A DNA stretch of 49,429 nucleotides from Bifidobacteriaceae bacterium (GCA_031278075.1 JAITLE010000216.1:1-49429); one strand, 5' to 3'. Positions 7,448 through 49,429 are shown, numbered from the stretch's first letter. Made by a program: numbers and translations. Notes: generated by a model not told the origin, from the sequence alone.

Positions 7448-7515
7448 GGGGGATCCTTTCTGGACGAATGGGGCTGCCGGGCCGAACCGCTGGTCGCGAG
7501 TGGCCTAGGCCGTTA

Positions 7516-8109
7516 TCACTGTAACGGTTGGGGCTCCACCGTGCCCCCGGCGGCGATGATCTTGACCCGAGCGGCGGCGGATGCCGCCTGCACCCTGACC
7601 TCCAGCCGGACCGCCACAGCGCCGTCTCCCAGCACCTTGACCGGGCGGCGCGGCCGCACCACGCCCCGCGCCGCGAGGTCCTGAGCGGTCACCACGCCGC
7701 CGCCTGGGTAGAGTTCCTCAAGCCTGTCAAGGTTGACGACCTGATACTCCACGCGGAAGCGGTTCTTGAAGCCGCGCAGCTTCGGCAACCGCATGTGCAA
7801 CGGCATCTGCCCGCCTTCCAGCCGCGCGGGCACCTGCGAACGCGCCTTTGTGCCCTTGGTGCCCCGGCCGGCGGTCTTGCCCTTCGACCCCTCGCCGCGG
7901 CCCACGCGGGTGCGCGCCGTCTTGGCGCCCGGCGCGGGCTTGAGGTGGTGCGCCTTCAACACGTGGGACTTGGCGACCTTGGCGGACGATGCCGACCGGT
8001 CGGGATCGTCCACAACCGTCGCGGCGCCGACCACCGCCTCAGGTGGCGTCGCGGCGCTCTCCAACGGCTCCGCCGCCTGGGCGGGGACCTCGTCTTTCTT
8101 CTTGGCCAT
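7516..8109 (-). CDS. rplO: 50S ribosomal protein uL15 with about 49-aa N-terminal extension
   Basis: Core [36 protein letters not shown]. The ATG at 8109 lies 2 nt after the rpmD stop with GAGGAG 11 nt upstream. A canonical-length start would be the GTG at 7962, which has no SD. Confidence 0.88.
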
Positions 8110-8111
8110 CG

Positions 8112-8297
8112 TCAGTCGATCTCCTCAACGGTCACGAGATGGGCGACTGTGCGAACCATGCCGCGCACCACTGAACTGTCTTCCTTTTCCACGGTCTGGC
8201 CGATCTTCCGCAACCCGAGCGACCGCAGCGTCTCCCGCTGGTTGCGCTGGCCGCCGATTCCGGACTTGACCTGTTTGATTCTGAGCGTGGCCATCAC
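8112..8297 (-). CDS. rpmD: 50S ribosomal protein uL30
   Basis: 61 aa: [36 protein letters not shown]. Overlaps the rpsE stop. Confidence 0.93.
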
Positions 8298-8944
8298 TTC
8301 TCCTCACCGTCGCGGGTCGCCACGACCACGGCTTGGGCCTGGCGCTTGAGCAACGCGGCGGGCGCCACGCGCTCCAGCGGCAGGCCACGGCGCACCGCCA
8401 CAGCCGCCGGCTCCTCCAAAGCGCGCAGAGCGGCGACCGTCGCGTGGGCGATGTTGATCGCGTTGGACGATCCCAACGACTTGGACAGGACGTCGTGGAT
8501 GCCAGCGCACTCGAGGACCGCGCGGACGGGGCCGCCGGCGATCACACCTGTGCCGGGGGCGGCTGGGCGCAAGAAGACCACGCCTGCGGCCGCCTCGCCC
8601 TGGACCGGGTGCGGGATGGTCTGAAGGATGCGCGGCACCTTGAAGAAAGACTTCTTCGCCACCTCGACACCCTTCGCGATCGCCGCCGGCACCTCCTTCG
8701 CTTTGCCGTAGCCGACACCGACTGTCCCGTCGCCGTCGCCCACGACCACCAAGGCCGTGAAAGAGAACCGCCGCCCGCCTTTGACGACCTTGGCGACGCG
8801 GTTGATGGCGACCACGCGCTCGAGGTATTGGCTCCTGTCGTCGTCAGCGCGTGAGCCGCGCCGACCGTCCCGGCGGCCGGAGTCGCGCCGGGCGCCGCCG
8901 CCGTCACGGCCCGCCTGCTCAGGACCTCGCTGCTCTGCAGCCAT
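8294..8944 (-). CDS. rpsE: 30S ribosomal protein uS5 (Arg/Gly/Asp-rich N-terminal extension)
   Basis: 216 aa. Core [45 protein letters not shown]. Confidence 0.95.
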
Positions 8945-8984
8945 CAGATGCTCTGCCTTCCGTTGTGCTTCGACATGCGTGCTC

Positions 8985-9350
8985 CTAGAGGGTCAGCCCG
9001 CCGCCGCGGGCCCCTTCAGCGACAGCGGCCACCCGGCCGTGGTACTTGTTTCCGCCGCGGTCGAACACCACGGCCTCGATGCCTTTGGCGCGAGCGCGTT
9101 CGGCCACCAACTCGCCGACCCGCCGGGCCTTGGCCGTCTTGTCGGCCGTGGCCGCACGCAACTCCGTCTCCATGGTGGAGGCGGACGCCAGCGTGTGGCC
9201 CACCGTGTCGTCGATCACCTGAGCCACCATGTGGCGCGCCGACCGAGTGACCACGAGGCGCGGCCGTGCCGCGGTGCCCGCGACGCTCTTGCGCAACCGG
9301 CGGTGCCGTTTGGCCCGCTGCGCCGCCCTTGAAACCGTCGCCATAGTCAC
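8985..9350 (-). CDS. rplR: 50S ribosomal protein uL18
   Basis: 121 aa: [34 protein letters not shown] ... [25 protein letters not shown]. Confidence 0.95.
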
Positions 9351-9889
9351 TTACCAGCCTTTCCAACCTTGCGCCGGACCGCTTCGCCTTGGTAGCGCAC
9401 GCCTTTGCCCTTATACGGCTCGGGTTTGCGGATCTTGCGGATGTTCGCCGCGACCTCGCCGACCAGTTCCTTGTCGATCCCGCTGACCGTGAACCGCGTC
9501 GCCGTCTCCACCGCGAACGTGATCCCCGGGGGGGCTTTGACCGGCACCGGGTGAGAGAAGCCCAGAGCGAACTCCAAGTCGCCCTCCCTGGGCACGACTC
9601 GGTAGCCGGTGCCGACGATCTCCATGACCTTGGTGTACCCGGCGGTCACCCCCGTCACCATGTTGGCGACCAGGGTGCGGGAAAGCCCGTGCATGGAGCG
9701 GGAGCGCCGCTCGTCGTTCGGGACGGTGACGACGATGGCGCCGTCCTCGTCGCGGGCGACGGACACGGGCTCGGGGAGCACGCGGCTCAGGGTCCCCTTG
9801 GGACCGTTGACCGTCACTGCGCGGCCGTCGATTGTCACATCCACCCCCGCGGGCACGGGGATGGGCAGCTTGCCGATGCGCGATGCCAT
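9347..9889 (-). CDS. rplF: 50S ribosomal protein uL6
   Basis: 180 aa: [22 protein letters not shown] ... [16 protein letters not shown]. Confidence 0.95.
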
Positions 9890-30418: not shown

Positions 30419-30889
30419 TCACCAGCGGTAGTGGGCGAACGCGCGGTTGGCCTCAGCCATCTTGTGGGTGTCCTCGCGGCGTTTGACCGCCGCGCCCAAG
30501 CCGTTTGAGGCGTCGATGATCTCGTTCATCAGACGCAAGGTCATGGTCTTCTCGCGCCGGGCCCGGCTGTAGCCCACCAGCCAGCGCAGCGAGAGGGTGG
30601 TGGCGCGGCCGGGCTTGACCTCGACCGGCACCTGGTAGGTGGCGCCGCCGACGCGACGCGACTTGACTTCCAGCGAGGGGCGGATGTTGTCCAGGGCGCG
30701 TTTGAGCAACGTCACGGCGTCACTCCCCGTCTTCTCGGCCGCGCCGTCCAGCGCGCCGTAGACGATCGACTCGGCGATGGTCTTCTTCCCGTCCAGCAGG
30801 ATCTTGTTGACCAACTGAGTGACCAGGGCGCTGCCGTAAACCGGGTCTTGCACCAGAGGGCGTTTGGGCGCCGGCCCCTTGCGCGGCAT
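30419..30889 (-). CDS. rpsG: 30S ribosomal protein uS7
   Basis: Track ORF trimmed to the ATG at 30889 ([20 protein letters not shown], 156 aa). TGATG overlap with the rpsL stop. Confidence 0.96.
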
Positions 30890-31263
30890 CAGCTCTTCTC
30901 CTTCTTGGCACCGTAGCGGGAGCGGGCTTGCTGGCGGCCGCGCACACCCTGCGCGTCGAGCGCGCCGCGCACAATCTTGTACCGGACCCCAGGCAGATCG
31001 CGCACGCGCCCGCCGCGGACCAGCACAATCGAGTGCTCTTGCAGGTTGTGGCCCACCCCGGGGATATAGGCGGTCACCTCGACACCATTCGACAACCGCA
31101 CCCGCGCCACCTTCCGCAGCGCCGAGTTCGGCTTCTTCGGAGTGGTGGTGTACACACGCGTGCAGACACCGCGACGCTGCGGGGATCCCTTCAAAGCAGG
31201 GGTCTTGGTCTTCCCCGCTTTGGCGGTCCGGCCTTTGCGGACCAGCTGCTGGATAGTGGGCAC
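30889..31263 (-). CDS. rpsL: 30S ribosomal protein uS12
   Basis: 124 aa: [55 protein letters not shown]. Confidence 0.97.
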
Positions 31264-31546
31264 TGGCTCTCCATCTTGGGTTGGTTGCGGAAGTGATCGG
31301 CTCAGGCGCGCGTGAGCGCGCCGCGCTAGCCCGCCAAGGCAGGCACACGAGCGATTAGGCTACCGCGGCGCCCGACGGCGCGTCAAAGCGAGGGGTCATC
31401 CATGCCCTGGCCATGTCGGCGCCGTGACCCGCCCCGCCGCTGACACCTCAGGGCCAAGCCCAGCCGCAGCGGCGACATGGACGACCCCTGGACAATCCCG
31501 TCAAGGCGCGCGGCGGCGGACCAAGGAGCCGACGGAGCCGCCAGCG

Positions 31547-32776
31547 TCACTCCACCAGGGTCCCCAACTCCCCCAACGCCGCCGTGATCTCGTGGATCGA
31601 CTCCTCGAAGGCCGCCCGGTCCACCGGCGCCACCCCGTTCAGGCAGCGCAGCGCCAACTCCCGCCAACTGGCGATCTGGTCGAGCCCTTGAGCCAGTTGC
31701 CGGTCGATCGGCTCGACCAGCCCCTCCAGCTCGCGCGACAGCCCCAGCCGGGGAACCTGCAGCCGCCACGCGGTCAACAGCTTCTGGAATTGCCCGAACT
31801 GCGCGGAACACCGCGTCACGCCCTCGGAAGTCCAGCGCAGCGCAGCCGACGACTTGGCGACTTGTTCCGCGAGCCGCCCCACGTCATCGTTCATCGCCTC
31901 GCAGAGCGCCGCGATGTGAGCCGAGCCGCCTGCCGGCGCGGCGCCCTCGTGCACCTCCCGGCTGAAACGGATCACCATATCGGTGTGCAGCCGCGCCAGC
32001 GCGATCCCGAAACGCAGCCGCAGCACAGTGGCGCGCACGGCCGCCAAACATTCGGCGAGCGCCGCGACTATCCCGTGCAGGTCGCATCCCAACGCCGTCA
32101 TCGCCTGCGCGGTGGACGCCAGGACCGGCGCCCGCTCCGCGACGCCCGCTGATGCCCGGCACGCGGCCCCGGTCACCTCGCCGAGCGAGTCGATCGTGGC
32201 GGCCAGCTCCTGCGAGGCGATGAGCAACAACTCGGCCAGCGTCTGCAGCGAGCCCAAGCGCCCCAGGACCCCGTCCAGGCGTCGTTGCGAAGCGACGGCC
32301 GCCCGCAGGATGCGTCCCGCCACGCCGCCGATCACCGCGGTCTCGGCCCACTGCGCGGCGGCGGCCACCCGCGCTGCCGTCTCAGCGGGCAACGCCGCCA
32401 GCAAGAACTCCTCGTAACACGCGAAATCCGCTAAGGCCAGCGGCCGTTCCAAGGCGGCGTCCCCGCTGCCAGCCGCCCGATGCCGACCGGCCCCAGCCTC
32501 CCCGCCAGCTCGCTCCACCGACCCGGCGCCGTCGCGCGTCCACCGGCCCGCTTCCCAGGTGGGTTTCGCGCGCGGCGCAGAATGAGCCGGCGGCAGACCC
32601 GCCGGCCCGCCGCCAGCCGAAGCCCAAAAGAAAGCCAACTCGTCCGCGGTCAGCACCCGGGGCGCGCCGCTCAACTCCGTCGGTTCCAGATCTGCCCGCC
32701 ACATGATGGGCCAGCCGTCCGAACTGCGGGTTTGCCGTGTGGCGCCCCGCGTGCGGCTGATCGTCACAACAGCCAT
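31547..32776 (-). CDS. hypothetical protein: low-complexity N-terminus plus uncharacterised helical domain paralogous to the C-terminal domain of the PAS protein at 44714-46135
   Basis: 409 aa. Long colinear similarity to the other copy (LRFGIALARLHTDMVIRF vs LRFRIALAQLHNDMVINF; FQKLLTAWRLQVPRLGLS vs FQKFLTTWRIQVPRFGVS). A possible -10 TATTAT lies at 32881-32886. Confidence 0.6.
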   Translation of the reverse strand: MAVVTISRTRGATRQTRSSDGWPIMWRADLEPTELSGAPRVLTADELAFFWASAGGGPAGLPPAHSAPRAKPTWEAGRWTRDGAGSVERAGGEAGAGRHRAAGSGDAALERPLALADFACYEEFLLAALPAETAARVAAAAQWAETAVIGGVAGRILRAAVASQRRLDGVLGRLGSLQTLAELLLIASQELAATIDSLGEVTGAACRASAGVAERAPVLASTAQAMTALGCDLHGIVAALAECLAAVRATVLRLRFGIALARLHTDMVIRFSREVHEGAAPAGGSAHIAALCEAMNDDVGRLAEQVAKSSAALRWTSEGVTRCSAQFGQFQKLLTAWRLQVPRLGLSRELEGLVEPIDRQLAQGLDQIASWRELALRCLNGVAPVDRAAFEESIHEITAALGELGTLVE

Positions 32777-33026
32777 CTCGCCCTGCCTTCCCTACGCCCG
32801 CCGGATCGGCGCGGCGCCATCCGGTTGCGGCCGACGGACCGGGAAGTCTGGTGCTGGGGGCCTGCCCTGAAAGACCGCGGATAATATTTCTCTTACCGTA
32901 CCGTGTGCCCGGCCGACAGACCTCGCCCTAGGGCCATTCGAGCGGCGCCGATTAGGTGACCTTGCTCACACTCTCCGCACGGGACCCACGACTCGTGGGC
33001 GGCGGGGGCGGCGTGGGCGGCCCAGA

Positions 33027-33053
33027 CCGCGCGCGGGGCGGCCCCGCGCGCGG
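33027..33053 (-). terminator. GC-rich hairpin downstream of rpoC
   Basis: 12-bp perfect stem CCGCGCGCGGGG/CCCCGCGCGCGG with a 3-nt loop, 11 nt after the rpoC stop. A second small hairpin CCCACG/CGTGGG lies at 32985-32999. No U-tract. Confidence 0.5.
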
Positions 33054-33063
33054 CCGGCCAACT

Positions 33064-36000
33064 TCAGTCCACGTAGTCGTCGTAGGGCAGCGGCGGCAGA
33101 TCGCCCAGGATGATGCCGTCCTCGCCGAGCGTCGGATAGTCGACGATCTCCTCGTAGCCGAAGGCGGGATACAACTCAGCCTTCGCCTCGTCGGTGGGCT
33201 CGACCACGACGTGGCGGTACCGCGGCAGACCCGTGCCGGCGGGGATCAGCTTGCCGATGATCACGTTCTCCTTCAAGCCCAGCAGCGAGTCCTGTCGGCC
33301 CGAGATAGCCGCCTCGGTCAGCACCCTGGTGGTCTCTTGGAACGACGCGGCCGAGAGCCACGAGTCCGTCGCCAGGGACGCCTTCGTGATCCCCATCAGC
33401 TCGGAACGGCCCTGCGCGCCTTGCCCGCCCTCAGCGAGGACACGCCGGTTCTCGTCCTCGAACTTGTCGCGCGCGACCAACTCGCCCGGAAGCAGAGTCG
33501 TGTCGTTCGGCTCCAGGACGGTGACCCGCCGCAGCATCTGGCGGACGATCACCTCGATGTGCTTGTCGTGGATGTCCACACCCTGCGACCGGTAGACCGC
33601 CTGGACCTCATGCACCAGGTGCTCCTGGGCTTTGCGCGGGCCCTGGACGCGCAACACCTTCTTCGGGTCCACAGCGCCCACTGTCAACGGCTGGCCCACT
33701 TCGACCGTCTCGCCCTCGGACACCTTCAAGCGCTGCCGCTTCGAGACGATGTACGGGTGCTCTTGGCCGTCGTCGGAGACGATCACGATCTGCCGCAGAC
33801 GCTCCGAATCGTCGATCGAGACCTTGCCGGCGGCCTCCGCGATCGGCGCCTCGCCCTTGGGCGTGCGCGCCTCGAACAGCTCCTGCACGCGGGGCAGACC
33901 CTGTGTGATGTCATCCGCCGCCGCGACGCCGCCCGTGTGGAACGTGCGCATCGTCAGCTGCGTGCCCGGTTCGCCGATCGACTGCGCCGCGATGATCCCG
34001 ACCGCCTCGCCTATGTCGACCAGCTTGCCCGTCGCGAGCGACCGGCCATAGCACTTCGCACACGTCCCCACCCGCGACTCACAGGTCAGCACGGAGCGCA
34101 CCTTGACGCTCTCCACGCCATGCGCGATCAGGTTGTCGATCATCACATCGCCCGCGTCCGCGCCGACCGGCGCCAGGATGCGGCCGTCGGGGCCGACCAC
34201 ATCCGTGGCCAGCGTCCGGGCGAACACCGAGGTCTCCACCTTCGGGTGGCGGAGCGGTTTGCCGTTCGGCCCAGCCTCCGCGATCGGCAGCGTCAGTCCG
34301 CGTTCCGTCCCGCAGTCTTCTTCGCGCACGATCACGTCCTGGGACACATCGACCAACCGCCGGGTCAAATACCCCGAGTCCGCGGTCCGCAACGCGGTGT
34401 CCGCCAAACCCTTGCGGGCGCCGTGGGTGGCGATGAAGTACTCCACCACGGACGGGCCCTCGCGGTAGTTCGACTTGATCGGCCGGGGGATGATCTCGCC
34501 CTTCGGGTCCGCCACCAAACCGCGCATCCCCGCGATCTGCCGGACCTGCATCCAGTTGCCGGCCGCGCCGGAGGAGACCATCCGGTAGACGGTGTTGCGC
34601 TCGGGGAAGTTCTGGCGCATCGCCGCGTCGACCTCGTCGGTCGCTTTGGTCCAGATCTCGATCAGCTCATGGCGCCGCTCGTCGTCGGTGACCAGGCCTT
34701 CGTCGTACTGTTCCTGGATCGCCTCGGCCAACGCCTCGTACCGGTTCAAGATCTCCTGCTTGGACGCCGGCGCCACCACGTCGGAGAAGCTGATCGTCAC
34801 CCCGGAACGGGTCGCCCAGTGGAAACCGGCCTCCTTCAGCGCGTCGAGCGCCGCCGCCACCTCCACCTTCGGGTACTTCTCTGCGAGGTCGTTGACGATG
34901 CCGCTCAGCCGCTTCTTGTCGACCATCTCGTTGACGTAGGGATAGTCGACCGGCAACGCTTCGTTGAACAGCGCGCGCCCGAGAGTCGTCTCCAGATCGA
35001 CTGTCTCCAATTCGGAGCTGGCCACCTCTTCGCCCGGGGCCTGGGGGCGCATGTAGTCGGTCATGCGAATCGTGACATTCGCGCCCAAAGCCAGCTCGTC
35101 GGCATCGTACGCCATGATGGCCTCCGCCACGGAGGAGAACTTCCGGCCCTCGCCCTTCGCCCCGTCGAGCTGGGTCGTCAAGTGGTTGATGCCGATGATC
35201 ATGTCCTGAGTGGGGATGGTCACCGGGCGGCCGTCGGACGGCTTCAGAATGTTGTTGGAGGACAACATCAAGATGCGGGCCTCCGCCTGGGCTTCCGCCG
35301 AGAGCGGCAGGTGGACCGCCATCTGATCGCCGTCGAAGTCCGCGTTGAACGCGCCGCAGACCAACGGGTGCAGGTGGATCGCCTTGCCTTCGACTAGCTG
35401 CGGCTCGAACGCCTGAATGCCGAGCCGGTGCAAGGTCGGAGCACGGTTGAGCAACACCGGGTGTTCGGTGATGACCTCCTCCAACACGTCCCACACCACC
35501 GACTGCTGGCGCTCCACCATCTTCTTGGCGTTCTTGATGTTCTGCGAGTGCTGCAGCTCCACCAGGCGCTTCATGACGAACGGTTTGAACAGCTCCAACG
35601 CCATCGCCTTCGGCAGGCCGCACTGATGCAGCTTCAAGGTCGGCCCCACCACGATCACGCTACGGCCGGAGTAGTCGACCCGCTTGCCCAACAGGTTCTG
35701 GCGGAAACGGCCCTGCTTGCCCTTCAGCATGTCGCTGATGGACTTGAGCGGCCGGTTGCCCGGGCCGGTCACCGGCCGGCCACGCCGCCCGTTGTCGAAC
35801 AGCGAGTCCACGGCCTCCTGGAGCATCCGCTTCTCGTTGTTCACGATGATCTCCGGGGCGCCCAAGTCGATCAAGCGCTTGAGCCGGTTGTTCCGGTTGA
35901 TGACCCGGCGGTACAGGTCGTTCAGGTCGGATGTCGCGAACCGGCCGCCATCTAGCTGAACCATGGGCCGCAGGTCCGGCGGGATCACCGGGATGCAATC

Positions 36001-36942
36001 CAGCACCATGGCCTCCGGCCGGTTGTCGGTCTGCAGGAAGGCGTTGACGACACGCAACCGCTTCAGGGCGCGGATCTTGCGCTGGCCCTTGCCGTTCTTG
36101 ATGATCTCCCTCAGGGTGACCGACTCGCCCTCCAAGTCGAACGTCTCAAGGCGGCGCTGGATCGCGGCGGCGCCCATCGCGCCCTTGAAATAGGACCCGA
36201 ACCGGTCCTGCATCGAGCGGTACAGCAGCTCGTCGCCTTCGAGGTCGGCGACTTTCAGGTTCGCGAAACGATCCCAGATCGCCTCCAGGCGTTCGACTTC
36301 CTTGCGGGCGCGCTCGCGGATCGCGGCCAGCTCACGGCTGGCCGAGGCCTCGACTTTGCGGCCCACGGCCGCCTTGGCGCCCGCGGCCTCCAGGTCCCTC
36401 AAATCAGCGCGGAGCTTGTTCAGCCGCGCGTCCTGGGCCGCCTCGGCGTCACGTTCGATCCTCGCCTGGTCCAGCTCGATCTCGGCCCTGAGCGAGTCCA
36501 GATCGGCGGCGCGGGCCTCCGTGTCCACATCGGTGATCATGTAGGCCGCGAAGTAGATGACCTTCTCCAGGTCCTTCGGCGCCAGGTCCAGCAGGTAGCC
36601 GAGACGCGACGGGACGCCCTTGAAGTACCAGATGTGGGTCACCGGAGCGGCCAGCTCGATGTGCCCCATGCGCTCGCGGCGCACCTTGGACCGGGTCACC
36701 TCGACGCCGCAGCGTTCACAGATGATGCCCTTGAACCGCACCCGCTTGTATTTGCCGCAAGAGCACTCCCAGTCCCGGGTCGGCCCGAAGATCCGTTCGC
36801 AGAACAGCCCTTCCTTCTCGGGCTTCAAAGTGCGGTAGTTGATCGTCTCGGGCTTCTTGACCTCGCCGTGGGACCAGCTGCGGATCTCGTCCGCCGTGGC
36901 CAGCCCAATCTTGATTCCGTCGAAGGTGTTGACGTCCAGCAA
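33064..36942 (-). CDS. rpoC: DNA-directed RNA polymerase subunit beta'
   Basis: 1292 aa: [38 protein letters not shown] ... [12 protein letters not shown]. Confidence 0.98.
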
Positions 36943-36993: not shown

Positions 36994-40533
<3,540 letters not shown>

Positions 40534-40665
40534 AGTCCCTCCCGTATAGAAAAAAGCACGCGGCGCAGCACTGAGGCTCAAACATTGAGTGGGCAAGAGG
40601 CACAGGACAGCGCAGGGAGCTAGCCTAGCCTCGAATTCGCGCCTTGTCCAGCGCCGTACGCCCTC

Positions 40666-41880
40666 CTAGTCGACTGCGGTGGTCAACTCGAAGATCGGGA
40701 GGTACAGACAGATCAGGATGGCGCCGACGATCGAGCCCACCATGACGATCAGCACCGGCTCGATGATCGAGGTGATGGCGGTCGTGGCCTGCTGCACCTC
40801 GTCGTCGTAGAACTCGGCGACCTTCTCCAGCATCGAGTCGAGGGCGCCCGCCTCCTCGCCGACCGAGACCATGCGGGAGATCATCGGGCCGAAGATCGGC
40901 TCAGCCGCGATCGCCTTGCCGAGCGAGCTGCCGACGGTGACCTGTTCCTTGACGCGGGCGACGGCATCGGTCACCACCACGTTGCCGGCCGTCTCCCCCG
41001 TGATCTCAAGCGTTTGGACGATCGGCACGCCGACCCGGCTCATGGTGGCGATGGACCGGGACAGCCGGGCCAGGGAGACCTTGAGCAACAAACCGCCTAT
41101 GATCGGCAGCTTCAACTTGATCGGGTCAAGCTTCTCGCGCACCGCGAGATCGTTCTTGTGGTTGCTCCACCACCAGCCCATGAGCAGCAGCAACACGAGG
41201 AGCGGCGCCCCGGCGATCTTCAACAGACCGGACAGGCCGACCAGCACCTTCGTCGGCACCGGCAACTCCTTGCCGAGGTCGGCGAAGATGCCTTCGAAGA
41301 CGGGCACGATGAACAGCAGCATCGCGACGACCACGATCGCGGCGAAGATCAGCACCACGATCGGGTAGACCATCGCGGACTTGACCGCTCGCCGCAGCCG
41401 CAACTCCGCCTCCAGTTGCTCTGCCACCGACGAGAGCACCTGGTCGAGGTAGCCACCGGCCTCGCCCGCGCGGACCATCGCCAGGATCACCGGCGAGAAG
41501 TCCTTCGGGTGTTTGGCCAGCGCGTCCGCCAGGGTGGACCCGGTCTCGACGTCCGAGGCGACTTGGCGGAGCACCTTCTGCAACGCGGTGGAGCCGGTCT
41601 GGTCCGCGATCGCGTTGAGCGACTGGAGCAACGAGAGGCCCGCGTTGACCATCGTGGCGAGCTGGCGGATCGTCACCGCCACGTCCTTCGGCTTGGCGGT
41701 GGAGCTGCCGAAATTGATCTCGGTGTGCAGGCCGCCGCTCGCGGCCTCGCGGATGTCGATCGGGGTGAGACCCGCCTCACGCAGGTGGCGGGCCACCGCC
41801 CGCTGGTCGGGGCCCTCGATCTTGCCGGACTGCGTGGAGCCCCCGGCGATCACTGTGTATTCGAAGGTCTTGGTCGCCAT
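40666..41880 (-). CDS. pilC: type IV pilus platform protein PilC (T2SS-F family)
   Basis: 404 aa. Two T2SSF-type repeats and three hydrophobic segments, with a typical PilC/GspF layout. Confidence 0.9.
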   Translation of the reverse strand: MATKTFEYTVIAGGSTQSGKIEGPDQRAVARHLREAGLTPIDIREAASGGLHTEINFGSSTAKPKDVAVTIRQLATMVNAGLSLLQSLNAIADQTGSTALQKVLRQVASDVETGSTLADALAKHPKDFSPVILAMVRAGEAGGYLDQVLSSVAEQLEAELRLRRAVKSAMVYPIVVLIFAAIVVVAMLLFIVPVFEGIFADLGKELPVPTKVLVGLSGLLKIAGAPLLVLLLLMGWWWSNHKNDLAVREKLDPIKLKLPIIGGLLLKVSLARLSRSIATMSRVGVPIVQTLEITGETAGNVVVTDAVARVKEQVTVGSSLGKAIAAEPIFGPMISRMVSVGEEAGALDSMLEKVAEFYDDEVQQATTAITSIIEPVLIVMVGSIVGAILICLYLPIFELTTAVD

Positions 41881-41886
41881 GGCGGA

Positions 41887-43038
41887 TCACATCCTTCCGA
41901 ATGGATTGTTGAGCCCCGACGCGCCCTGCTGCACCCGGGCGGAACGGCCCAGCATGCGGGCGAACTCATCCGGCATGCGGGCGTTCTCGAGGCCTTCCTC
42001 AAAGGTGATGTCGCCCTGGCGCACCAAGTCGGCCAGCGACTGGTCCAGGGTGTGCATGCCCTCTTCTCCGCCGGAGTGCAGCACGGAGTAGATCTGGTGC
42101 AGCTTGTTCTCGCGGATCATCGCGCGGATCGCGGGAGTCGCCCGCATCAGCTCGGTCGCCACGACCCGGCCACGGCCGTCGGCCCGGCGGCACAAGGTCT
42201 GCGACAGCACCGCCTGAAGGGTGATCGCCAGCTGAGAGCGGATCTGATCCTGGTGGGTCGACTCGAATTGGTCCACCAAGCGGTTGATGGACTGCGCCAC
42301 ACCCTGCGTGTGCAGCGTGGCGAACACGAGGTGGCCGGTCTCGGCGGCGCGCAGCGCGGTCTCCATGGTCTCTTTGTCGCGCAACTCGCCGACCAAGATG
42401 ATGTCCGGGTCTTGGCGCAGCGCGTGCTTCAACGCTTCCGCGAAGGAAAGCGTGTCCACGCCGATCTCGCGTTGAGCCACGAGGCACCGGTTGGAGTTGT
42501 GCTGGTATTCGATCGGATCCTCAATCGTCAAGATGTGCCCCGAGCGAGTCCGGTTCGCCAGGTCGATCACCGCCGCGAGCGTGGTGGACTTGCCGGAGCC
42601 GGTCGGCCCGCAGACCAGCACCAGACCGCGCGGCAGGCCGGCGAACGTCTTGACCACCGCGGGGATGCGCAACTCCTCCAACGGCCGGATGACGTCTGGG
42701 ATGACGCGGAACGCCGCCGCGATCGAGCCGCGGTCCCAGAACAGGTTGGCGCGGAACATGCGCCCGGAGGGCACCTGGCAGGAGTAGTCGAGCTCCAGGT
42801 TGTCGTCGAACTTTTGGCGCTGGGTGCGCGTCAGCATGCCCAAGAGCTGCTCGTAGAGCGCGTCCTCGCCGGGCGCGTCGAAGCCCGGCAGCGGGGTCAG
42901 CTCCCCCGACATCCGCACGATCGGGGGCAGCAGCGCAGTCAAGTGGAGGTCTGACGCGCCCATCGCCGCGGACTCTTCCAAGGCTTGCACCAAGTCAAGC
43001 GTTTGCTCATCGCCGTACACTTCGGCCGCAGCGTTCAT
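41887..43038 (-). CDS. pilT: type IV pilus retraction ATPase PilT
   Basis: 383 aa: GASDLHL ... GPTGSGKSTTLAA ... ILVGELRD ... ATLHT ... AIRAMIRENK (AIRNLIRE-type motif). Confidence 0.92.
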   Translation of the reverse strand: MNAAAEVYGDEQTLDLVQALEESAAMGASDLHLTALLPPIVRMSGELTPLPGFDAPGEDALYEQLLGMLTRTQRQKFDDNLELDYSCQVPSGRMFRANLFWDRGSIAAAFRVIPDVIRPLEELRIPAVVKTFAGLPRGLVLVCGPTGSGKSTTLAAVIDLANRTRSGHILTIEDPIEYQHNSNRCLVAQREIGVDTLSFAEALKHALRQDPDIILVGELRDKETMETALRAAETGHLVFATLHTQGVAQSINRLVDQFESTHQDQIRSQLAITLQAVLSQTLCRRADGRGRVVATELMRATPAIRAMIRENKLHQIYSVLHSGGEEGMHTLDQSLADLVRQGDITFEEGLENARMPDEFARMLGRSARVQQGASGLNNPFGRM

Positions 43039-44717
43039 GCCACCACCCTCAACAGTTCCTCGACGGACGTCTGTCCCTGCGCGACTTTCGCCCAGCCGTC
43101 TTGTCGCAACGTGATCATGCCTTGTTCGCGCGCGAGTTCGCCCAGTTCACGGGTCGACTTGCGCAAAGCCGTGAGGTGTTCCAGCTCCCTGGTCACCGGC
43201 ATCACCTCATGCACCGCGAGCCGGCCCTTGAAGCCGGTGTTGGCGCACGCGGAACAGCCCTTCGGCCGGTACAGGTTGGGCGGCGGCGGCTCCCGGAAAA
43301 TCCAGTCCGCGCGCAGCATCTCCTGCTCCGGCTCGCTCGGCGGGTACGGTTCGCGGCAGCGCTCGCACAGCCGGCGCGCCAGGCGCTGCGCCACCACGCA
43401 GTCCAACGCCGACGCCACGAGGAACGGCTCGATCCCCATCTCCGTCAGGCGGGTCACAGCCGACGGAGCGTCGTTCGTGTGGAGGGTGGACAGCACCAGG
43501 TGGCCGGTCAGGGCCGCCTCGACCGCGATCTGCGCGGTCTCGCCGTCGCGGATCTCGCCGACCAGCACCACATCCGGGTCCGCCCGCAGGATCGACCGGA
43601 GCGCGGCGGCGAACGTCAAGCCCGCCTTCGGGTTGACCTGGACCTGGTTGACCCCAGCCATGCGATACTCCACCGGGTCCTCGATGGTGATCACGTTCAC
43701 CTCGGGCCGCGAGATCTCGCGCAGCGTGGCGTAAAGCGTGGTCGACTTGCCGGAGCCGGTCGGGCCCGTGGCGAGGATCATCCCGTACGGCTTGGTGTAA
43801 GACTTCTTGTATAGCTGGAAAGAGGCCTCCGAGAACGACAACTTGCGGAGGTCGACCTGCACCGCGGAGGTGTTCAGGATACGCATGACGACCTTCTCGC
43901 CCCACACCGTCGGCAAGGTGGCGACGCGCAAGTCCACATCGTTGCCATCCACGTTGACGGAGATGCGGCCGTCCTGCGGCTTGCGCCGCTCGGCGATGTC
44001 GATGTCCGCCATGATCTTGATGCGCGAGATGACTTGCGACTGGATCGACTTCGGCGCGCTTTGCATCTCATGGAGCACACCGTCGATCCGGTAGCGCACG
44101 CGCAGGTCCAATTCCTCCGGCTCCAAGTGGATGTCGGAGCATCCGTCATGGATCGCCTGCGAGATCAGCAGATGCGCCCAGCGGACGACAGGCGAATCCT
44201 CTTGGACGATGTCGGCCACGGAGACGCTGACCTGCTGCCGCTCTTCCTCCCGCGCCGAGGAGTCGAGGGACTGGCCGATCGAGTCGATCTCCGAATCGGA
44301 CCGCACGTGGCGGCCGATCGCGCGTTCCAGGGCGCCGCGTTCGGCGACCGTCGGGATCACCGCGGCGCGCAGATAGGACCGCACGTCATCGATCGCCACC
44401 AGGTTGCCCGGCTCGGCCATCGCCACGACCACCGCGTCGCCCTCGCGGGCGATCGGCAGCAGCAGATGGCGCCGGCAGATCCCGCCGGGCACGGAACCGG
44501 CGACCCTGGGGTCGATCGCGAACGCGTCGAGGTCGACAAACCTCAGACCGGCGGCCTCCGCGAGGATCGGGATGAGGTCCTCCTCGCGCAGGGCGCCACT
44601 GGTGACGAGGGCTTGGCTGAGCGTGATGCCCTCCATCGCCTGGGCGCGGGTCGCCTGATCCAGCTGCGCCTGGGAGACCAGGCCACGGGACAGCAGGGTC
44701 TGCTCAAGGGCGCTCAT
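43035..44717 (-). CDS. pilB: type IV pilus assembly ATPase PilB (GspE family)
   Basis: Track ORF trimmed to the ATG at 44717 (MSALEQTLLSRGLV, 560 aa), an ATGA overlap with the upstream stop. T2SSE N-domain, GPTGSGKSTTLYA, VLVGEIRD, and tetracysteine CERC...CSAC. Confidence 0.92.
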   Translation of the reverse strand: MSALEQTLLSRGLVSQAQLDQATRAQAMEGITLSQALVTSGALREEDLIPILAEAAGLRFVDLDAFAIDPRVAGSVPGGICRRHLLLPIAREGDAVVVAMAEPGNLVAIDDVRSYLRAAVIPTVAERGALERAIGRHVRSDSEIDSIGQSLDSSAREEERQQVSVSVADIVQEDSPVVRWAHLLISQAIHDGCSDIHLEPEELDLRVRYRIDGVLHEMQSAPKSIQSQVISRIKIMADIDIAERRKPQDGRISVNVDGNDVDLRVATLPTVWGEKVVMRILNTSAVQVDLRKLSFSEASFQLYKKSYTKPYGMILATGPTGSGKSTTLYATLREISRPEVNVITIEDPVEYRMAGVNQVQVNPKAGLTFAAALRSILRADPDVVLVGEIRDGETAQIAVEAALTGHLVLSTLHTNDAPSAVTRLTEMGIEPFLVASALDCVVAQRLARRLCERCREPYPPSEPEQEMLRADWIFREPPPPNLYRPKGCSACANTGFKGRLAVHEVMPVTRELEHLTALRKSTRELGELAREQGMITLRQDGWAKVAQGQTSVEELLRVVA

Positions 44718-46135
44718 CGCACACCTCGGGGCATCGCGAGGCCCATCGAGTTGAACACGGCCTGGGTGTGCTCGTAATTGTCGCGGATCACATTGCGCGA
44801 TGCCGCGTTGATTCGACTGAGGATCTCCTCCATCGGGATGCGGTCGAACGGCCGCGCCTCCGCGACGCACGCCCGCGCCAGGTGGCGTAGGGCGTTCAGC
44901 TCTTCGTGGGTGCGGTTGAGCTGCGCGTCGATCGGTCCGACGAGCGGTCCGAGCTGCGCCGACACGCCGAAGCGCGGCACCTGGATGCGCCAGGTGGTGA
45001 GGAACTTCTGGAACTGGGTGAGATGGGCGCCAGCGGATTCGACCTGGGCGCCCACATCGCCGAGCACCCGATGGGCGCTCTCCAAGCCGGATCCGACGGC
45101 TTCGACGTCATCGGCCAGCGCATAGCACAGCAGCGGCACGTACAGGAAGCCCTCCGGCGGCGCGAAGCCGTCCAGGGTCTCGAGGGCGAAGTTGATCACC
45201 ATGTCGTTGTGGAGTTGCGCCAAGGCGATCCTGAAGCGTAGCTCCATCACCCCGAGGCGGATCTGGGAAAGCCGCTCCGGCAAGGGGGCGATGACCTGCT
45301 CCGCCCCCGCGCCGACCTGGGTCATCGCGTTCGCGGTGCTGGCCAAGATGGGAGCGTGGGACGCGACCCGCTGGGAGGCGTTGAGCGAGATCTGCGTGAC
45401 CTCCGCCAGCTGCGCCACGGTGCCGCCGAGCTGCTTCGAGCCGGCCTGCAAAGCTTCCGCCAACTGCTGGAGCGAGTCGAGGCGGCCCAGCAGATCGCCG
45501 ATCAGCTCATCCATCGCGACGGCGTTGTTCAGGATGTCGGCGATGTCGCCGTGCGCCTCGGGCCGGTAGGTCCTCCGCGCCGAGAGCGACACGCGGGTCT
45601 GGGTCTCGGCGGGCAACGCCGTGTACATGAACTCGTCATAGGAGGGGAAGCCCGCGTCGGACAGCATCCCCGCCAGGGAGGTCAAGCCGATCGTGGCGGT
45701 CTTGGACCGGTTGGCGCCTTTCGCCTTCCCGTCCTCCTCGATCGGCAGCGCCTGGCCGTAGAGCCCAAGCGCCGCGTTCCACAGCGGCTCGAATCTTGGC
45801 GAGGAACGGACCGACAAGAAGCCGCTGCCCATTGGCGTGACGGTGGCGAACACCTGATAGTCGAACCCGTCTTTGGCCAGATTCTTGACGTAGGCCGCGA
45901 ACGGTTTCCCGCCCAGCAGGGTGTCCCACATCAGCTTGAAGGCGCCCGCCGGCATCAGCGGGTTGCGAATCAGGTTGTGGGGCGCGCCCATCAACTCGTC
46001 CCGCGGGAACGCGGACAGCCGAGCGAACACGCTGTTGGCCGCGGTTATGACGCCCTTCCTGTCGGTGCAAGAGAAGAACAGCTCGTCGACACCGACCCGC
46101 CGTTCTTGCCCTATGCGGGATTTGCGATCAAGCAT
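44714..46135 (-). CDS. Aer-type PAS domain protein with uncharacterised C-terminal helical domain
   Basis: 473 aa. Residues about 15-115 (ITAANSVFARLSAFPRDELMGAPHNLIRNPLMPAGAFKLMWDTLLGGKPF) match the E. coli Aer FAD-PAS core ([30 protein letters not shown]). The rest is helical, with no canonical MCP hairpin motif and no TM segment. Confidence 0.75.
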   Translation of the reverse strand: MLDRKSRIGQERRVGVDELFFSCTDRKGVITAANSVFARLSAFPRDELMGAPHNLIRNPLMPAGAFKLMWDTLLGGKPFAAYVKNLAKDGFDYQVFATVTPMGSGFLSVRSSPRFEPLWNAALGLYGQALPIEEDGKAKGANRSKTATIGLTSLAGMLSDAGFPSYDEFMYTALPAETQTRVSLSARRTYRPEAHGDIADILNNAVAMDELIGDLLGRLDSLQQLAEALQAGSKQLGGTVAQLAEVTQISLNASQRVASHAPILASTANAMTQVGAGAEQVIAPLPERLSQIRLGVMELRFRIALAQLHNDMVINFALETLDGFAPPEGFLYVPLLCYALADDVEAVGSGLESAHRVLGDVGAQVESAGAHLTQFQKFLTTWRIQVPRFGVSAQLGPLVGPIDAQLNRTHEELNALRHLARACVAEARPFDRIPMEEILSRINAASRNVIRDNYEHTQAVFNSMGLAMPRGVR

Positions 46136-46733
46136 TGCGCAACCTATCCATAGCGACTCGGACCACCGCCACCAAGGCTTGCTTGGCCGCCTCCTTGGAG
46201 CGGGCGTCGGAATACATGATCGGGATGTCGGGGCCGACCGCCAACGCGTCGCGGACGTCCTCGAGGGTGTGCCGCGCTATCCCGTCGAAGCAGTTGATCA
46301 CCACGACGAACGGGATGTTGCGGGACTCGAAATAGTCCACCGCGGTGAACCCTTGGTCCAGGCGGTCGGTGTCGACCAGCACGACGGCGCCGATCGCGCC
46401 GCGCACCAAGTCGTCCCACATGAACAAGAAGCGTTCCTGCCCCGGTGTGCCGAACAGATAGAGCCAGAGCGACTCGCCCAACGCGATCCTGCCGAAGTCC
46501 ATGGCGACCGTCGTGGTGTCCTTCTGCGCGGCCCGCCGGCCGGCATCGTCCACCCCGAGGGAGTGTTCCGTCATGTCGGCTTCTGTGTTGAGCGGCTCGA
46601 TATCTGACACCGCGCCGATAAACGTCGTCTTGCCCACGGCGAAGCCACCCGCGACCACGATCTTGACGACCGTCGGGGGCTTGGTCCTGGTCACTGCGCC
46701 GCTGCGGGCTTGCTCATAGCTCGGATATTGCAT
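46128..46733 (-). CDS. cvnD: conservon-type small Ras-like GTPase (CvnD-like ATP/GTP-binding protein)
   Basis: 201 aa: KIVVAGGFAVGKTTF (P-loop), LYLFGTPGQERF (switch II), VVINCFDG. Confidence 0.85.
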   Translation of the reverse strand: MQYPSYEQARSGAVTRTKPPTVVKIVVAGGFAVGKTTFIGAVSDIEPLNTEADMTEHSLGVDDAGRRAAQKDTTTVAMDFGRIALGESLWLYLFGTPGQERFLFMWDDLVRGAIGAVVLVDTDRLDQGFTAVDYFESRNIPFVVVINCFDGIARHTLEDVRDALAVGPDIPIMYSDARSKEAAKQALVAVVRVAMDRLRNA

Positions 46734-47526
46734 TCAGAACACTCTCCAGTAACTCCAGGGTTTGCTCGCGGCTGACCGCGCCGGCGGTGAGGCCGCCTGC
46801 TCCGGCGACCGTGTCATGAACTAACAGGACGCCCGACTCGGCCAAGTCCGACACCAGGACCTTGACCACCCCGACCGGCAACTTCAAGTGGGCTGAGACT
46901 TCCGCGACCGTCAAATATGTGGTCGCGATCTGCCGGACGATCGCCAACTCCTCGGGCGACAAGCCCTTCCCCTTGTCGGCCAGCCACTGCTGGTTGGCCA
47001 CCTCCAAGATGGACTCGAGCCGGGTGTCGGTGGTGGCCTGGGTGCGGCCCCGTGTCACGACAAACGGCCGGACGGAGGACACGTCATGGTCTTCATTCGG
47101 GGAACCTTCGGGACGTTTGTCCGCCGCGGGCCGCGACCCGGCCGCCTGCGGCGGCAACGAGCCGGTGTGCGTCGGCAGCGAGCCGGTGTGATGCGGCGCC
47201 GTGTTCGTGCCCGCCGCCGGCTCGGGGCCGCGAGCCGGCGGAGTCGGCGGCGAAGCCGAATCGACCGCTTCGGCCTGCGCCGCCCGAGCCGCCCTGGTCC
47301 GCTCCGCCTCACGCGCCGCCGAAGTCAGGGGCCTGCGCCGCTCCACCTGGACAGCCCGCCCGCCGCGCGGCGCTGAAGGCCGCCGCGGCTCGGCCGTGAC
47401 CGGTGGCTCGCCAGGCGCCGGCACCCGGATGTTCGCCGGGTTCGTCAGCGAGTCGAAGGACCGCTCGGCGAGGCGCCCGTCGGGGCGTCCGGCGCGGAGG
47501 CGGGCCTGGGTTTGATCGGGCGTCAC
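46714..47526 (-). CDS. cvnC: DUF742 protein (CvnC-like) with about 150-aa disordered Pro/Ala/Arg-rich N-terminus
   Basis: 270 aa. C-terminal VRPFVVTRGRT ... SPEELAIVRQIATTYLTVAEVSAHLKLPVGVVKVLVSDLAESGVLLV. Confidence 0.8.
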   Translation of the reverse strand: MTPDQTQARLRAGRPDGRLAERSFDSLTNPANIRVPAPGEPPVTAEPRRPSAPRGGRAVQVERRRPLTSAAREAERTRAARAAQAEAVDSASPPTPPARGPEPAAGTNTAPHHTGSLPTHTGSLPPQAAGSRPAADKRPEGSPNEDHDVSSVRPFVVTRGRTQATTDTRLESILEVANQQWLADKGKGLSPEELAIVRQIATTYLTVAEVSAHLKLPVGVVKVLVSDLAESGVLLVHDTVAGAGGLTAGAVSREQTLELLESVLNAISEL

Positions 47527-47978
47527 AGGCCACCTCGCACAGTGCCTGTCGTGGGCAGCGAATCACGCATCTGGGCGATCAGGGCAGGGGTGAGGAACGT
47601 CTCGGCTTTGCCGACCAGGGTGGCCATCTCGTAGCCGACCAGGCCGACATCCGAGTCGGGTTCGCACAGGACTGCCAAGACCGATCCGTTCGAGATCGAC
47701 ATCAGCATCACGAACCCCTCCTCGTATTCGATCACGGACTGGCGGTCACGGCCGATCCCGAGTTCGCGCCCCGCCCCGCGAGCTAGCGAGGACATTCCCG
47801 AGCAGATCGCTGCCATGATGTCGCCGACGGTACGGTCGGCGCCGCCTGACATGGTCATAAGCAGCCCGTCCGCGCTGACGACCACTCCCAGCCTGGCGCC
47901 GGGGGTGGAGCGGACGAACGAGTCGAGGAGCCAGGTCAGGTCCTGCCTGTTCTCCCCGTGCTGGTAGCTGGTGGTCAT
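47523..47978 (-). CDS. cvnB: roadblock/LC7 domain protein (CvnB-like, MglB-type fold)
   Basis: 151 aa: LTWLLDSFVRSTPGARLGVVVSADGLLM ... SVIEYEEGFVMLMSISNGSVLAVL. The ATG is preceded by AAGGAGGAATC. Confidence 0.85.
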   Translation of the reverse strand: MTTSYQHGENRQDLTWLLDSFVRSTPGARLGVVVSADGLLMTMSGGADRTVGDIMAAICSGMSSLARGAGRELGIGRDRQSVIEYEEGFVMLMSISNGSVLAVLCEPDSDVGLVGYEMATLVGKAETFLTPALIAQMRDSLPTTGTVRGGL

Positions 47979-48043: not shown

Positions 48044-49429
48044 TTACCCCTTACCGGCCGGCGCGCGGGATCCGCTGCGGCCACGCCTGGTGCCGAGTTG
48101 GAAAGCAGAGAGCGCCGACCGGATCTTGTCGGCGTCGCGGGCCTTGGGCGGCACTTTGGCGGGTTCCGCCACAGCAGGCACGGATGAGGCGCCCGATTGC
48201 CGCCGCGCCAAGCTGGAGGCGGGCCTCGACTCGGTCTTCTCTGGCTTGTAGGTGTTCAGCCCCGCCAATTCAGCGAGGGCCTCCTCCTGGATTGTGGCTC
48301 TCAGCGCGATCGCCGAACCGGCGATCGACGAGTTGAGATCCGGGATCGCCAGCGCCGCGTCGCCCCCGCCGCCTGGTTGCATGGTTCCGCCCGGTGAGAA
48401 GCCGCCCGTGGGCCGCCCGGTGGACGATGCCGTCCGGCCGTCCCCCGACATCGGCAACGGTCCCGTCGGGCCGACCGGGGCACGGGTCGGCAGCACGGGG
48501 CCGCTGGGGCCGCTTCGGACATCTTGGACACCGGGGGCGGCGCCGGGGCCGCCGCCCGGGAAGCCGGGCGCTGCGCCGAGATCCCCGGGAATCGGCGGGA
48601 GGCCGAGCGCGGGTCCCGGTGTGATGATCGCCGGCGCGGCGAATCCCGTCCGACCGCTTGGGCCGGGGCTCGCGCCGTCCGGGCTCGCGGCGCCGGGGCT
48701 CGGCTGACCGGGCGGAATGCCCGGTCCGGGGATGGAGCCTGGCGCGGGGAAGGCTGGCGCGCCACCGGGCGTGAAGGTCGGGGAGCCGGGCGGCGCCGCG
48801 GGCCCGCTCGGCGGCTGCGCGGGCGCGAAGCCGCCCACGGGGGCGGCCGGCCCCGCCGCTGGGCCGACTGCGACCGCAGGCGCCGGCTGGGCGGTCCGGT
48901 GTGCCGCCTGGGGCACACCGGGCCGGCTGAGCGGCGGGGCGGCGCCAATCGGCGGGATCAAGCCGGGTGGCACGGTGACATTCGGCGCGATGGCGCCGGG
49001 CGCGCTCGGCACCGGCGGGAAGGCCTCCAGCGGCCGGGCGACAAGGGGCCGGCGGGCCGTCGCCGGGCGGCGCGCCATCGGCGCGTCGGACCCGATGGGC
49101 CGCTCGCCGGTGGCTAGGGCTTCGGACAAGGCGGGCAGGTCTCCCGCCGGCGGCGCCGCAGCCCCGGGGCGGGCGGTCGGCCGCGCCCTATGCCCCGCCG
49201 GCTGGGCTGGTCCCGCCGGGGCGCCTCCGAAAGGGAACTGAGTTCCGGGGCCCGCGGGTCCCGGCGGCCTGATGACCGGTGGCGCCGTGGCGCCAGTCCT
49301 GTCGTGGAGAGCCTGCCCGTCCGCGGAATGGCGGGGCAAGACGGAACTCGGGTTCGCGCCCTCGCCCAGCGGCGTGAAACGCGCCCCGAGCGGCACTATC
49401 CCCATCCCGCCGGGCCGGTCCGTCGGGTC
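48044..49429 (-). CDS. partial CDS (5' end outside the window): Pro/Gly/Ala-rich C-terminal tail, probably of a CvnA-like sensor-kinase-like protein
   Basis: The reading frame is open to the window edge. More than 450 aa of low complexity, ending ...KIRSALSAFQLGTRRGR.... Assignment rests only on the conservon gene order cvnA-B-C-D; no catalytic domain is visible. Confidence 0.4.
   Translation of the reverse strand, partial: DPTDRPGGMGIVPLGARFTPLGEGANPSSVLPRHSADGQALHDRTGATAPPVIRPPGPAGPGTQFPFGGAPAGPAQPAGHRARPTARPGAAAPPAGDLPALSEALATGERPIGSDAPMARRPATARRPLVARPLEAFPPVPSAPGAIAPNVTVPPGLIPPIGAAPPLSRPGVPQAAHRTAQPAPAVAVGPAAGPAAPVGGFAPAQPPSGPAAPPGSPTFTPGGAPAFPAPGSIPGPGIPPGQPSPGAASPDGASPGPSGRTGFAAPAIITPGPALGLPPIPGDLGAAPGFPGGGPGAAPGVQDVRSGPSGPVLPTRAPVGPTGPLPMSGDGRTASSTGRPTGGFSPGGTMQPGGGGDAALAIPDLNSSIAGSAIALRATIQEEALAELAGLNTYKPEKTESRPASSLARRQSGASSVPAVAEPAKVPPKARDADKIRSALSAFQLGTRRGRSGSRAPAGKG

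Follow-up and report, generated by a model that had tools for sequence, protein, structure and literature searches.

A sensor-deleted paralogue of an actinobacterial PAS and helical-bundle family in the rpoC-rpsL slot of a termite-gut bacterium

We identified a 409-residue open reading frame (ORF A), located between rpoC and rpsL in a termite-gut member of the Bifidobacteriaceae, as a derivative of an unnamed actinobacterial protein family in which an Aer-type PAS sensor precedes a long helical bundle. The PAS core of ORF A has been removed or has decayed, and ~65 disordered residues are left before an intact linker and bundle. Full-length PAS-bearing genes occupy the same slot in sister species, and ORF A is their positional orthologue. 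Taken as a whole, our account is that of a real gene that lost its sensor, kept linker and bundle under selection and may act as an input-blind output module; we regard this account as reasonably probable.

The locus and the loss of the sensor in ORF A

The window, by which we mean the whole stretch of DNA analyzed (49,429 nt; GCA_031278075.1 JAITLE010000216.1:1-49429), has a GC content of 68% and is contig C190 of a termite-gut MAG (2.6 Mb, 286 contigs, 96% complete). The following genes of the window are relevant here:

30889-31263, rpsL (Pfam)
31547..32776, minus strand, ORF A, 409 aa with ATG start, slot paralogue with deleted sensor, belonging to the family of Aer-type PAS plus helical-bundle proteins
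33064-36942, rpoC (Pfam)
36994-40596, rpoB (Pfam)
40666-41880, PilC (T2SSF) (Pfam)
41887-43038, PilT (Pfam)
43035-44717, PilB (Pfam)
44714..46135, minus strand, ORF B, 473 aa, paralogue that retains the sensor (Aer-type PAS followed by bundle), with a conservon GTPase gene before it and pilB after it
46128-46733, GTPase (ATP_bind_1) (Pfam)
46714-47526, DUF742 (Pfam)
47523-47978, Roadblock (Pfam)

ORF A was found as described in the initial annotation of this DNA, on the minus strand and with 409 aa. Gene order around ORF B is Roadblock, DUF742, small GTPase, B, pilB, pilT, pilC and rpoB, and the Pfam check of the neighbors agrees with the earlier statement that ORFs A and B flank rpoB-rpoC. 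An ORF at 48044-49405 (minus strand) precedes the Roadblock gene, in the place of a CvnA gene, and reaches the region of the window edge; it matched no Pfam family at E <= 1e-5, HATPase included. An assembly artefact as the origin of ORF A was ruled out by a Logan contig of the source run, an independent assembly that spans 31300-33200 without an indel. The sole difference in 1.9 kb is at window position 31545 (C in the window, T in the Logan contig), 2 nt past the stop of ORF A. The database gene call for ORF A (P0001) is shorter, with 301 aa.

ORFs A and B are true paralogues that share a helical domain of ~300 aa. The initial annotation had aligned them by inspection, and all four peptide pairs that it quoted are present in the two translations; BLASTP with composition-based statistics gave 144/380 identities (38%) with one gap and an E-value of 2e-72. 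Low-complexity composition, the concern attached to that alignment, cannot account for it, since the Smith-Waterman score was 572 compared with 40.4 +/- 6.1 for shuffles of B (n=300; z 88) and the helical part by itself reached z 76. Similarity peaks at the helix turns (APVL, VPRxGxS), with 62-67% identity versus 35-50% in the helices.

The sensor region was assessed with a family alignment of 118 sequences, in which 87 columns were conserved at 90% or above (41 helical and 46 PAS). Only 9 of the 46 PAS columns are kept by ORF A, whereas every other member keeps at least 38, and the PHN..RHP..MP block is absent; the family PAS (PAS_3) is marked by the motifs PHNxxRHPxMP and MW. No PAS match to ORF A was detected in Pfam or NCBIfam. 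A family HMM built from 117 members, with A left out, placed residues 66-403 on profile positions 112-449 (E 2e-91); for residues 1-70 taken separately, the same HMM gave an E-value of 0.3-0.7. ORF A is thus divided as follows:

32582..32776, minus strand, residues 1-65, vestigial N-terminus and former PAS region, with no supported PAS homology
32327..32581, minus strand, residues 66-150, linker helices common to the family, including the ALPAE motif
31550..32326, minus strand, residues 151-409, single-chain four-helix bundle with helices of ~60 residues (AlphaFold2 model)

Residues 1-65 are predicted to be unstructured (AlphaFold2 pLDDT 25-34), no homologue of them was found, and the AlphaFold2 model of ORF A contains no strand and hence no PAS fold (a five-stranded sheet with flanking helices). 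It had been proposed that the PAS is replaced by a region of ~115 aa. The non-homologous N-terminus is however ~65 aa long, because the family profile aligns from residue 66 and residues 71-115 are confidently predicted linker helices common to the family; no new 115-aa replacement is present. We also considered a frameshifted PAS upstream of the ATG. A tblastn comparison of four PAS-bearing relatives with positions 31400-33100 returned only an in-frame match beginning near residue 22-24, and the N-terminal half of the PAS was not found in any frame of this interval.

What the remnant corresponds to is less certain. Residues 22-65 could be placed on the C-terminal half of the PAS through MW, L..D and S.P (BLAST and MAFFT; not significant), and residues 34-49 could instead be placed weakly on the family N-terminal cap (profile; not significant). 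Since these two weak registers are mutually exclusive, the end points of the deletion are uncertain. Direct comparison with the N-terminus of the slot copy of sister genome G003 gave an E-value of 4.3.

The rpoC-rpsL slot in sister genomes

Genomes of 10 other species of the genus were surveyed, and slot status was scored in all of them except G006 and G007. A B-type copy was present in 10/10 genomes with 82-92% identity; the value of 82% is from G001, in which two frames share the B-type gene. Slot copies were detected in five (G001, G002, G003, G008 and G010), that is, in six species together with the genome of ORF A. In the sister MAGs the slot gene is full length (477-491 aa) and contains PAS_3 (e.g., P0017 and P0003), and it lies ~13 kb from the B-type copy where both share one contig, as in the window. 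In three genomes (G004, G005 and G009), rpoC is followed directly by rpsL at a distance of 141-368 nt, and the slot gene is missing; a further family member did not turn up at any other position in G005 or G009, and the two matches in G004 are both B-type. A search with the ORF A protein itself returned three matches, namely its own 301-aa call and two PAS-bearing proteins (48% and 44% identity).

A maximum-likelihood tree was built from the alignment columns between B residues 113 and 450, which cover linker and helical domain. It separated a slot clade (SH-aLRT 97) from a cvn clade (SH-aLRT 100), and placed A with the G003 slot copy and P0002 (99) and B with the B-type copies of G003 and G004 (99). 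At the sites that distinguish the two clades (n=25), A is slot-type at 9 and cvn-type at 2. ORF A is therefore the positional orthologue of the full-length, PAS-bearing slot genes. Because a gene of this kind occupies the same slot in five sister species, loss of the sensor in ORF A is, as judged from the sequences, specific to its lineage. Species with and without a slot copy are found in both halves of the cvn tree, suggesting that the ancestor of the genus probably already had this copy and that three or more losses followed.

The evolutionary rate of the slot copy exceeds that of copy B 4- to 16-fold. On the G010-G002 path, the distance was 0.55 for slot copies versus 0.14 for B-type copies, and on the G000-G003 path it was 2.24 versus 0.14. 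The end branch of ORF A (0.89 per site) is the second-longest among the copies of the genus, after that of the G003 slot copy (1.35). The latter gene (L020, G003:C27; ATG at 3437-3435, minus strand) has an N-terminal extension of ~24 aa; its PAS region is full length, has lost the flavin-pocket block PHNxxRHP and keeps 32/50 conserved columns. Together with the gene loss in G004, this decay of the G003 PAS suggests that relaxation of the sensor dates back to the ancestor shared by the subclade.

The surroundings of ORF A contain several candidate expression signals:

31354..31386, minus strand, promoter-like TTGACG-17 nt-TAGCCT site for rpsL, located ~90 nt upstream of that gene and downstream of ORF A
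32782..32789, minus strand, Shine-Dalgarno-like AAGGCAGG, 5 nt before the ATG at 32776, common to the G003 slot gene
32875..32897, minus strand, AT-rich box AAATATTAT, ~110 nt upstream of the ATG, conserved with G003, candidate promoter -10 region
33027..33053, no strand assigned, perfect GC-rich inverted repeat of 13 bp (spacer of 1 nt, no T tract), immediately behind the rpoC stop

The 143 nt 5' of the ATG of ORF A align colinearly with the corresponding region of the G003 slot gene, AAGGCAGG, the ATG and the AT-rich box included. The ancestral start was therefore kept, and the lesion is internal to the reading frame, which it has left unbroken. The inverted repeat is likely a factor-independent terminator of the actinobacterial type, and the TTGACG-17 nt-TAGCCT block was also found between rpoC and rpsL in the slot-less G004, G005 and G009. 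A consensus scan of 31200-33200 called neither a sigma-70 promoter nor a T-tract terminator, and the AT-rich box was among the elements not called. With a 5' box of its own for ORF A, a hairpin after rpoC and a separate site for rpsL, the slot gene appears as an insert between two housekeeping units.

The initial annotation had left open whether placement around the RNA polymerase genes was due to chance or to co-expression. The position is indeed conserved in the genus. Co-expression by design does not hold, because ORF A has its own 5' region after the hairpin, rpsL has its own site and the slot gene is missing in three species. We therefore view the slot paralogue as a fast-evolving, repeatedly lost accessory copy, which calls for caution in inferring any coupling to the RNA polymerase genes.

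The same data bear on the idea that ORF A has taken on a new role outside the pathway of B, through its Arg-rich disordered N-terminus, in the manner of the basic nucleoid-binding tail of FrzCD (see below), or through its position beside RNA polymerase and ribosomal genes. The slot position has been kept in six species, the N-terminus is new in sequence and predicted to be disordered, and no copy except that of G003 evolves faster. However, the sites that ORF A conserves are the ancestral conserved sites of the family, with no new ones among them, the N-terminal 65 residues lack both a homologue and any indication of constraint, and the slot gene carries transcription signals of its own and has frequently been lost. 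We consider such a role highly improbable.

The PAS plus helical-bundle family and its fold

A word-indexed search with B yielded 216 relatives, most of them ~451 aa long and annotated as 'PAS domain-containing protein' (NCBI) or 'aerotaxis receptor' (JGI). Their hosts include Cellulomonas, Xylanimonas, Cellulosimicrobium, Streptosporangium, Amycolatopsis, Kineosporiaceae and others. An exhaustive search with a profile of the helical domain detected 734 representative clusters (50% identity) at E <= 0.001, and in nearly all full-length matches the domain begins near residue 150, after the PAS. The 301-aa database call of ORF A matched this profile at E 6.7e-100. The initial annotation had asked whether the domain is a named DUF: no Pfam or NCBIfam family covers it, and just scattered weak coiled-coil-type matches were obtained. 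An Aer-type family sensor, probably flavin-binding, is indicated by the PAS of B, which resembles that of E. coli Aer (structure 8DIK, E 1.1e-19) as well as the FAD-PAS domains of MmoS and NifL.

Both PAS and bundle are present in 221 of the 266 family proteins collected. A regular PAS-less branch was considered and rejected: the 31 short members begin inside the family alignment, and the two with readable contigs start 16-22 nt away from a contig end. No verified PAS-less member other than ORF A was found among the 266 proteins, so there is no independent precedent in the family for a bundle working alone. The initial annotation's picture of a family with sensor-bearing and sensor-less members is thus retained insofar as ORF A lacks a working PAS; the sensor-less branch is not, and ORF A represents a lineage-specific loss rather than a designed sensor-less member. 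Two distant members from the representative search appear to have unusual ends. P0266 (446 aa) opens with 51 non-matching residues, and the alignment of its PAS begins only at profile position 60; P0263 (512 aa) starts with the final strand of the PAS and is extended by ~156 aa at its C-terminus.

No conserved gene context was seen outside the genus in Streptosporangium, Cellulomonas or Actinomycetaceae. In one Actinomycetaceae locus (L028), a family member and an upstream 450-aa gene overlap by 4 nt (6652-8004 and 8001-9389), and the pair adjoins a HisKA_3/GerE two-component pair. The 450-aa gene has no Pfam match; it was rejected as a tandem paralogue partner as it has no similarity to the family.

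In the AlphaFold2 model of ORF A (pTM 0.78), pLDDT exceeds ~85 over residues ~70-409 and is mostly >90. Linker helices are predicted at residues 71-93, 98-115 and 121-146 (pLDDT 84-94), and the bundle is formed by helices 151-211, 217-276, 284-343 and 347-408. Conserved turns of the bundle carry APVL, EVxxGxAP and VPRxGxS, in addition to a PIDxQL motif, and ORF A retains the family motifs ALPAE, APVL, LRFxIALxxLH, WRxxVPRxGxS and PIDxQL. By analogy with receptor bundles, these conserved turns would be the likeliest partner-binding surfaces.

A specific solved fold could not be assigned. Foldseek of the model against the PDB returned nothing at E <= 0.001, and VIA-align recovered generic four-helix bundles, with Z 18 for the comparison of the ORF A bundle with a designed four-helix bundle. 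Neighbors in AlphaFold DB clusters were a PAS protein, methyl-accepting transducer proteins and a 'Chemotaxis protein', for which the TM-score normalized by the hit was 0.87. No match to Pfam MCPsignal (PF00015) was detected in 27 family members at E up to 1, and the best PDB sequence for the helical-domain profile was T. maritima 2CH7, a weak match (E 4e-4).

These results place ORF A relative to known proteins. It shares the profile match described above with the unnamed ~451-aa actinobacterial family (B and the slot copies P0017, P0003 and P0016) and the rpoC-rpsL slot with P0017 and P0003, and differs from them by the absence of PAS. Like E. coli Aer, the family has a PAS matching 8DIK that is followed by a long helical output region; unlike Aer, it lacks Pfam HAMP or MCPsignal matches, and ORF A lacks any PAS. 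A long antiparallel helical bundle is shared with the MCP cytoplasmic domain (TM1143, 2CH7), but the predicted bundle of ORF A consists of four helices of one chain, whereas that of MCPs consists of two hairpins of a dimer.

The fold is also relevant to the proposal that A and B form a mixed dimer or oligomer in which one PAS controls the mixed assembly. Their helical domains are homologous (41% identical in the bundle), the two genes lie in one genome at a distance of 13 kb, and chemoreceptor-like bundles form mixed arrays. However, AlphaFold2 closes a full four-helix bundle within one chain with high confidence, so a second chain is unnecessary for the fold. Moreover, three sister species keep B without a slot copy, implying that B is independent of it, and A and B differ at most clade-specific sites. 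A mixed assembly therefore appears quite unlikely.

Constraint on the bundle and possible function

The conserved bundle columns were largely kept by ORF A (38/41, compared with a family median of 40 and a minimum of 27), as were 97 of the 124 columns conserved in both clades of the genus. If change were uniform at the branch mean of 0.89 per site, ~17/41 bundle sites would be expected to persist (P ~5e-12 for the 38 observed). Nei-Gojobori dN/dS values relative to G003 were ~0.3 for the bundle and ~0.5 for the remnant (overall 0.3-0.6) and are rough, since synonymous sites are saturated (pS 0.5-0.7). Bundle dN of A is ~10x that of copy B for the same species pair. We read this as relaxed but real constraint on the bundle, as far as sequence comparison can tell. 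In frame, GC3 of ORF A is 0.86 overall and 0.85-1.0 across the helical part, and over ~32500-32700 the codon-position GC signal is weak, periodicity is flat and GC3 is lower.

These observations should be weighed against the possibility that ORF A is a slowly decaying pseudogene, a useless slot copy that stays open because stops are rare in 68% GC DNA. Several features fit this explanation: the PAS is destroyed, codon signals are poor over ~32500-32700, the end branches of A and of the G003 slot copy are long, and the window contains many long spurious ORFs. In addition, absence of the slot gene in G004, G005 and G009, the first being a close relative, implies that the slot copy is dispensable, and the decay of the G003 PAS fits a subclade in which the slot gene is on its way out; both count against a live gene. 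On the other hand, 38 conserved bundle positions persist where about 17 would be expected at a uniform rate, family homology is colinear over residues 66-403 without a frameshift, GC3 remains 0.85-1.0 across the bundle, and the ribosome-binding site and ATG are conserved with G003. Furthermore, the N-terminal remnant has decayed to noise beside a bundle that was kept, which requires selection on the bundle long after sensor loss and indicates that the difference in constraint is old and not recent. A pseudogene is accordingly unlikely in our view, and ORF A most likely represents a genuine derivative that is blind to input, as opposed to a recent pseudogene.

If ORF A is such a derivative, its history may be outlined. 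The slot copy would stem from a duplication of B, the conservon-linked copy, or of the ancestor of B, and would have become a transcription unit of its own between rpoC and rpsL in the genus. In the lineage of ORF A, the PAS core would then have been removed or have decayed while the frame, ribosome-binding site and start codon stayed, leaving ~65 unstructured residues before an intact linker and bundle (residues 66-409), with purifying selection acting on the latter.

The product is most likely an input-blind form of the output module. With no PAS, ORF A could not report redox state and would present its bundle in a fixed state, which may either titrate a partner of the sensor-bearing copy or signal constitutively. 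ORF A would thus engage the signaling target of the family constitutively or competitively, without a redox response. In its genome, this target is presumably the conservon G-protein module and the pilus ATPases beside B. We infer that ORF A is expressed and binds a partner, with an effect that could be that of a decoy or constitutive.

These candidate partners are suggested by analogy. The conservon accessory sensors CvnE (P450) and CvnF (GAF) bind and modulate the CvnA kinase (PMC13343842). B directly follows a cvnD-like GTPase gene, in the manner of an accessory fifth gene, and has a cytosolic sensor domain, although its family fold is PAS plus bundle instead of GAF or P450. Because B occupies an operon position equivalent to that of the accessory sensors, CvnA-D and the pilus ATPases are the first candidate partners of A and B. 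ORF A departs further from CvnE and CvnF, being sensor-less, outside the operon, 13 kb from the cvn genes across rpoBC and equipped with its own 5' region. The more specific proposal, that the bundle is an autonomous signaling module and that ORF A regulates, constitutively or as a dominant negative, a pathway of the conservon G-protein and type IV pili that the sensor-bearing copy would control, is possible but remains tentative.

A receptor-type helical bundle without a sensor domain of its own is also known from FrzCD of Myxococcus xanthus, a cytoplasmic chemoreceptor that lacks a ligand-binding domain and has a basic, unstructured N-terminal tail that binds the nucleoid. FrzCD, however, is a genuine MCP that has methylation sites and works with Che partners.

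The family is widespread in Actinobacteria, and ORF A is a useful natural variant of it, not a new kind of system. ORF A, B and a PAS-bearing slot copy could be compared directly for flavin binding and for partners (CvnA-D, PilB/PilT). If the proposed role is true, part of the output would be uncoupled from redox state in this termite-gut actinobacterium. ORF A can be viewed as a natural experiment in which the sensor is long gone and the conserved turns of the bundle are still kept, suggesting that the bundle carries the essential interaction surface of the family and is selectable alone.
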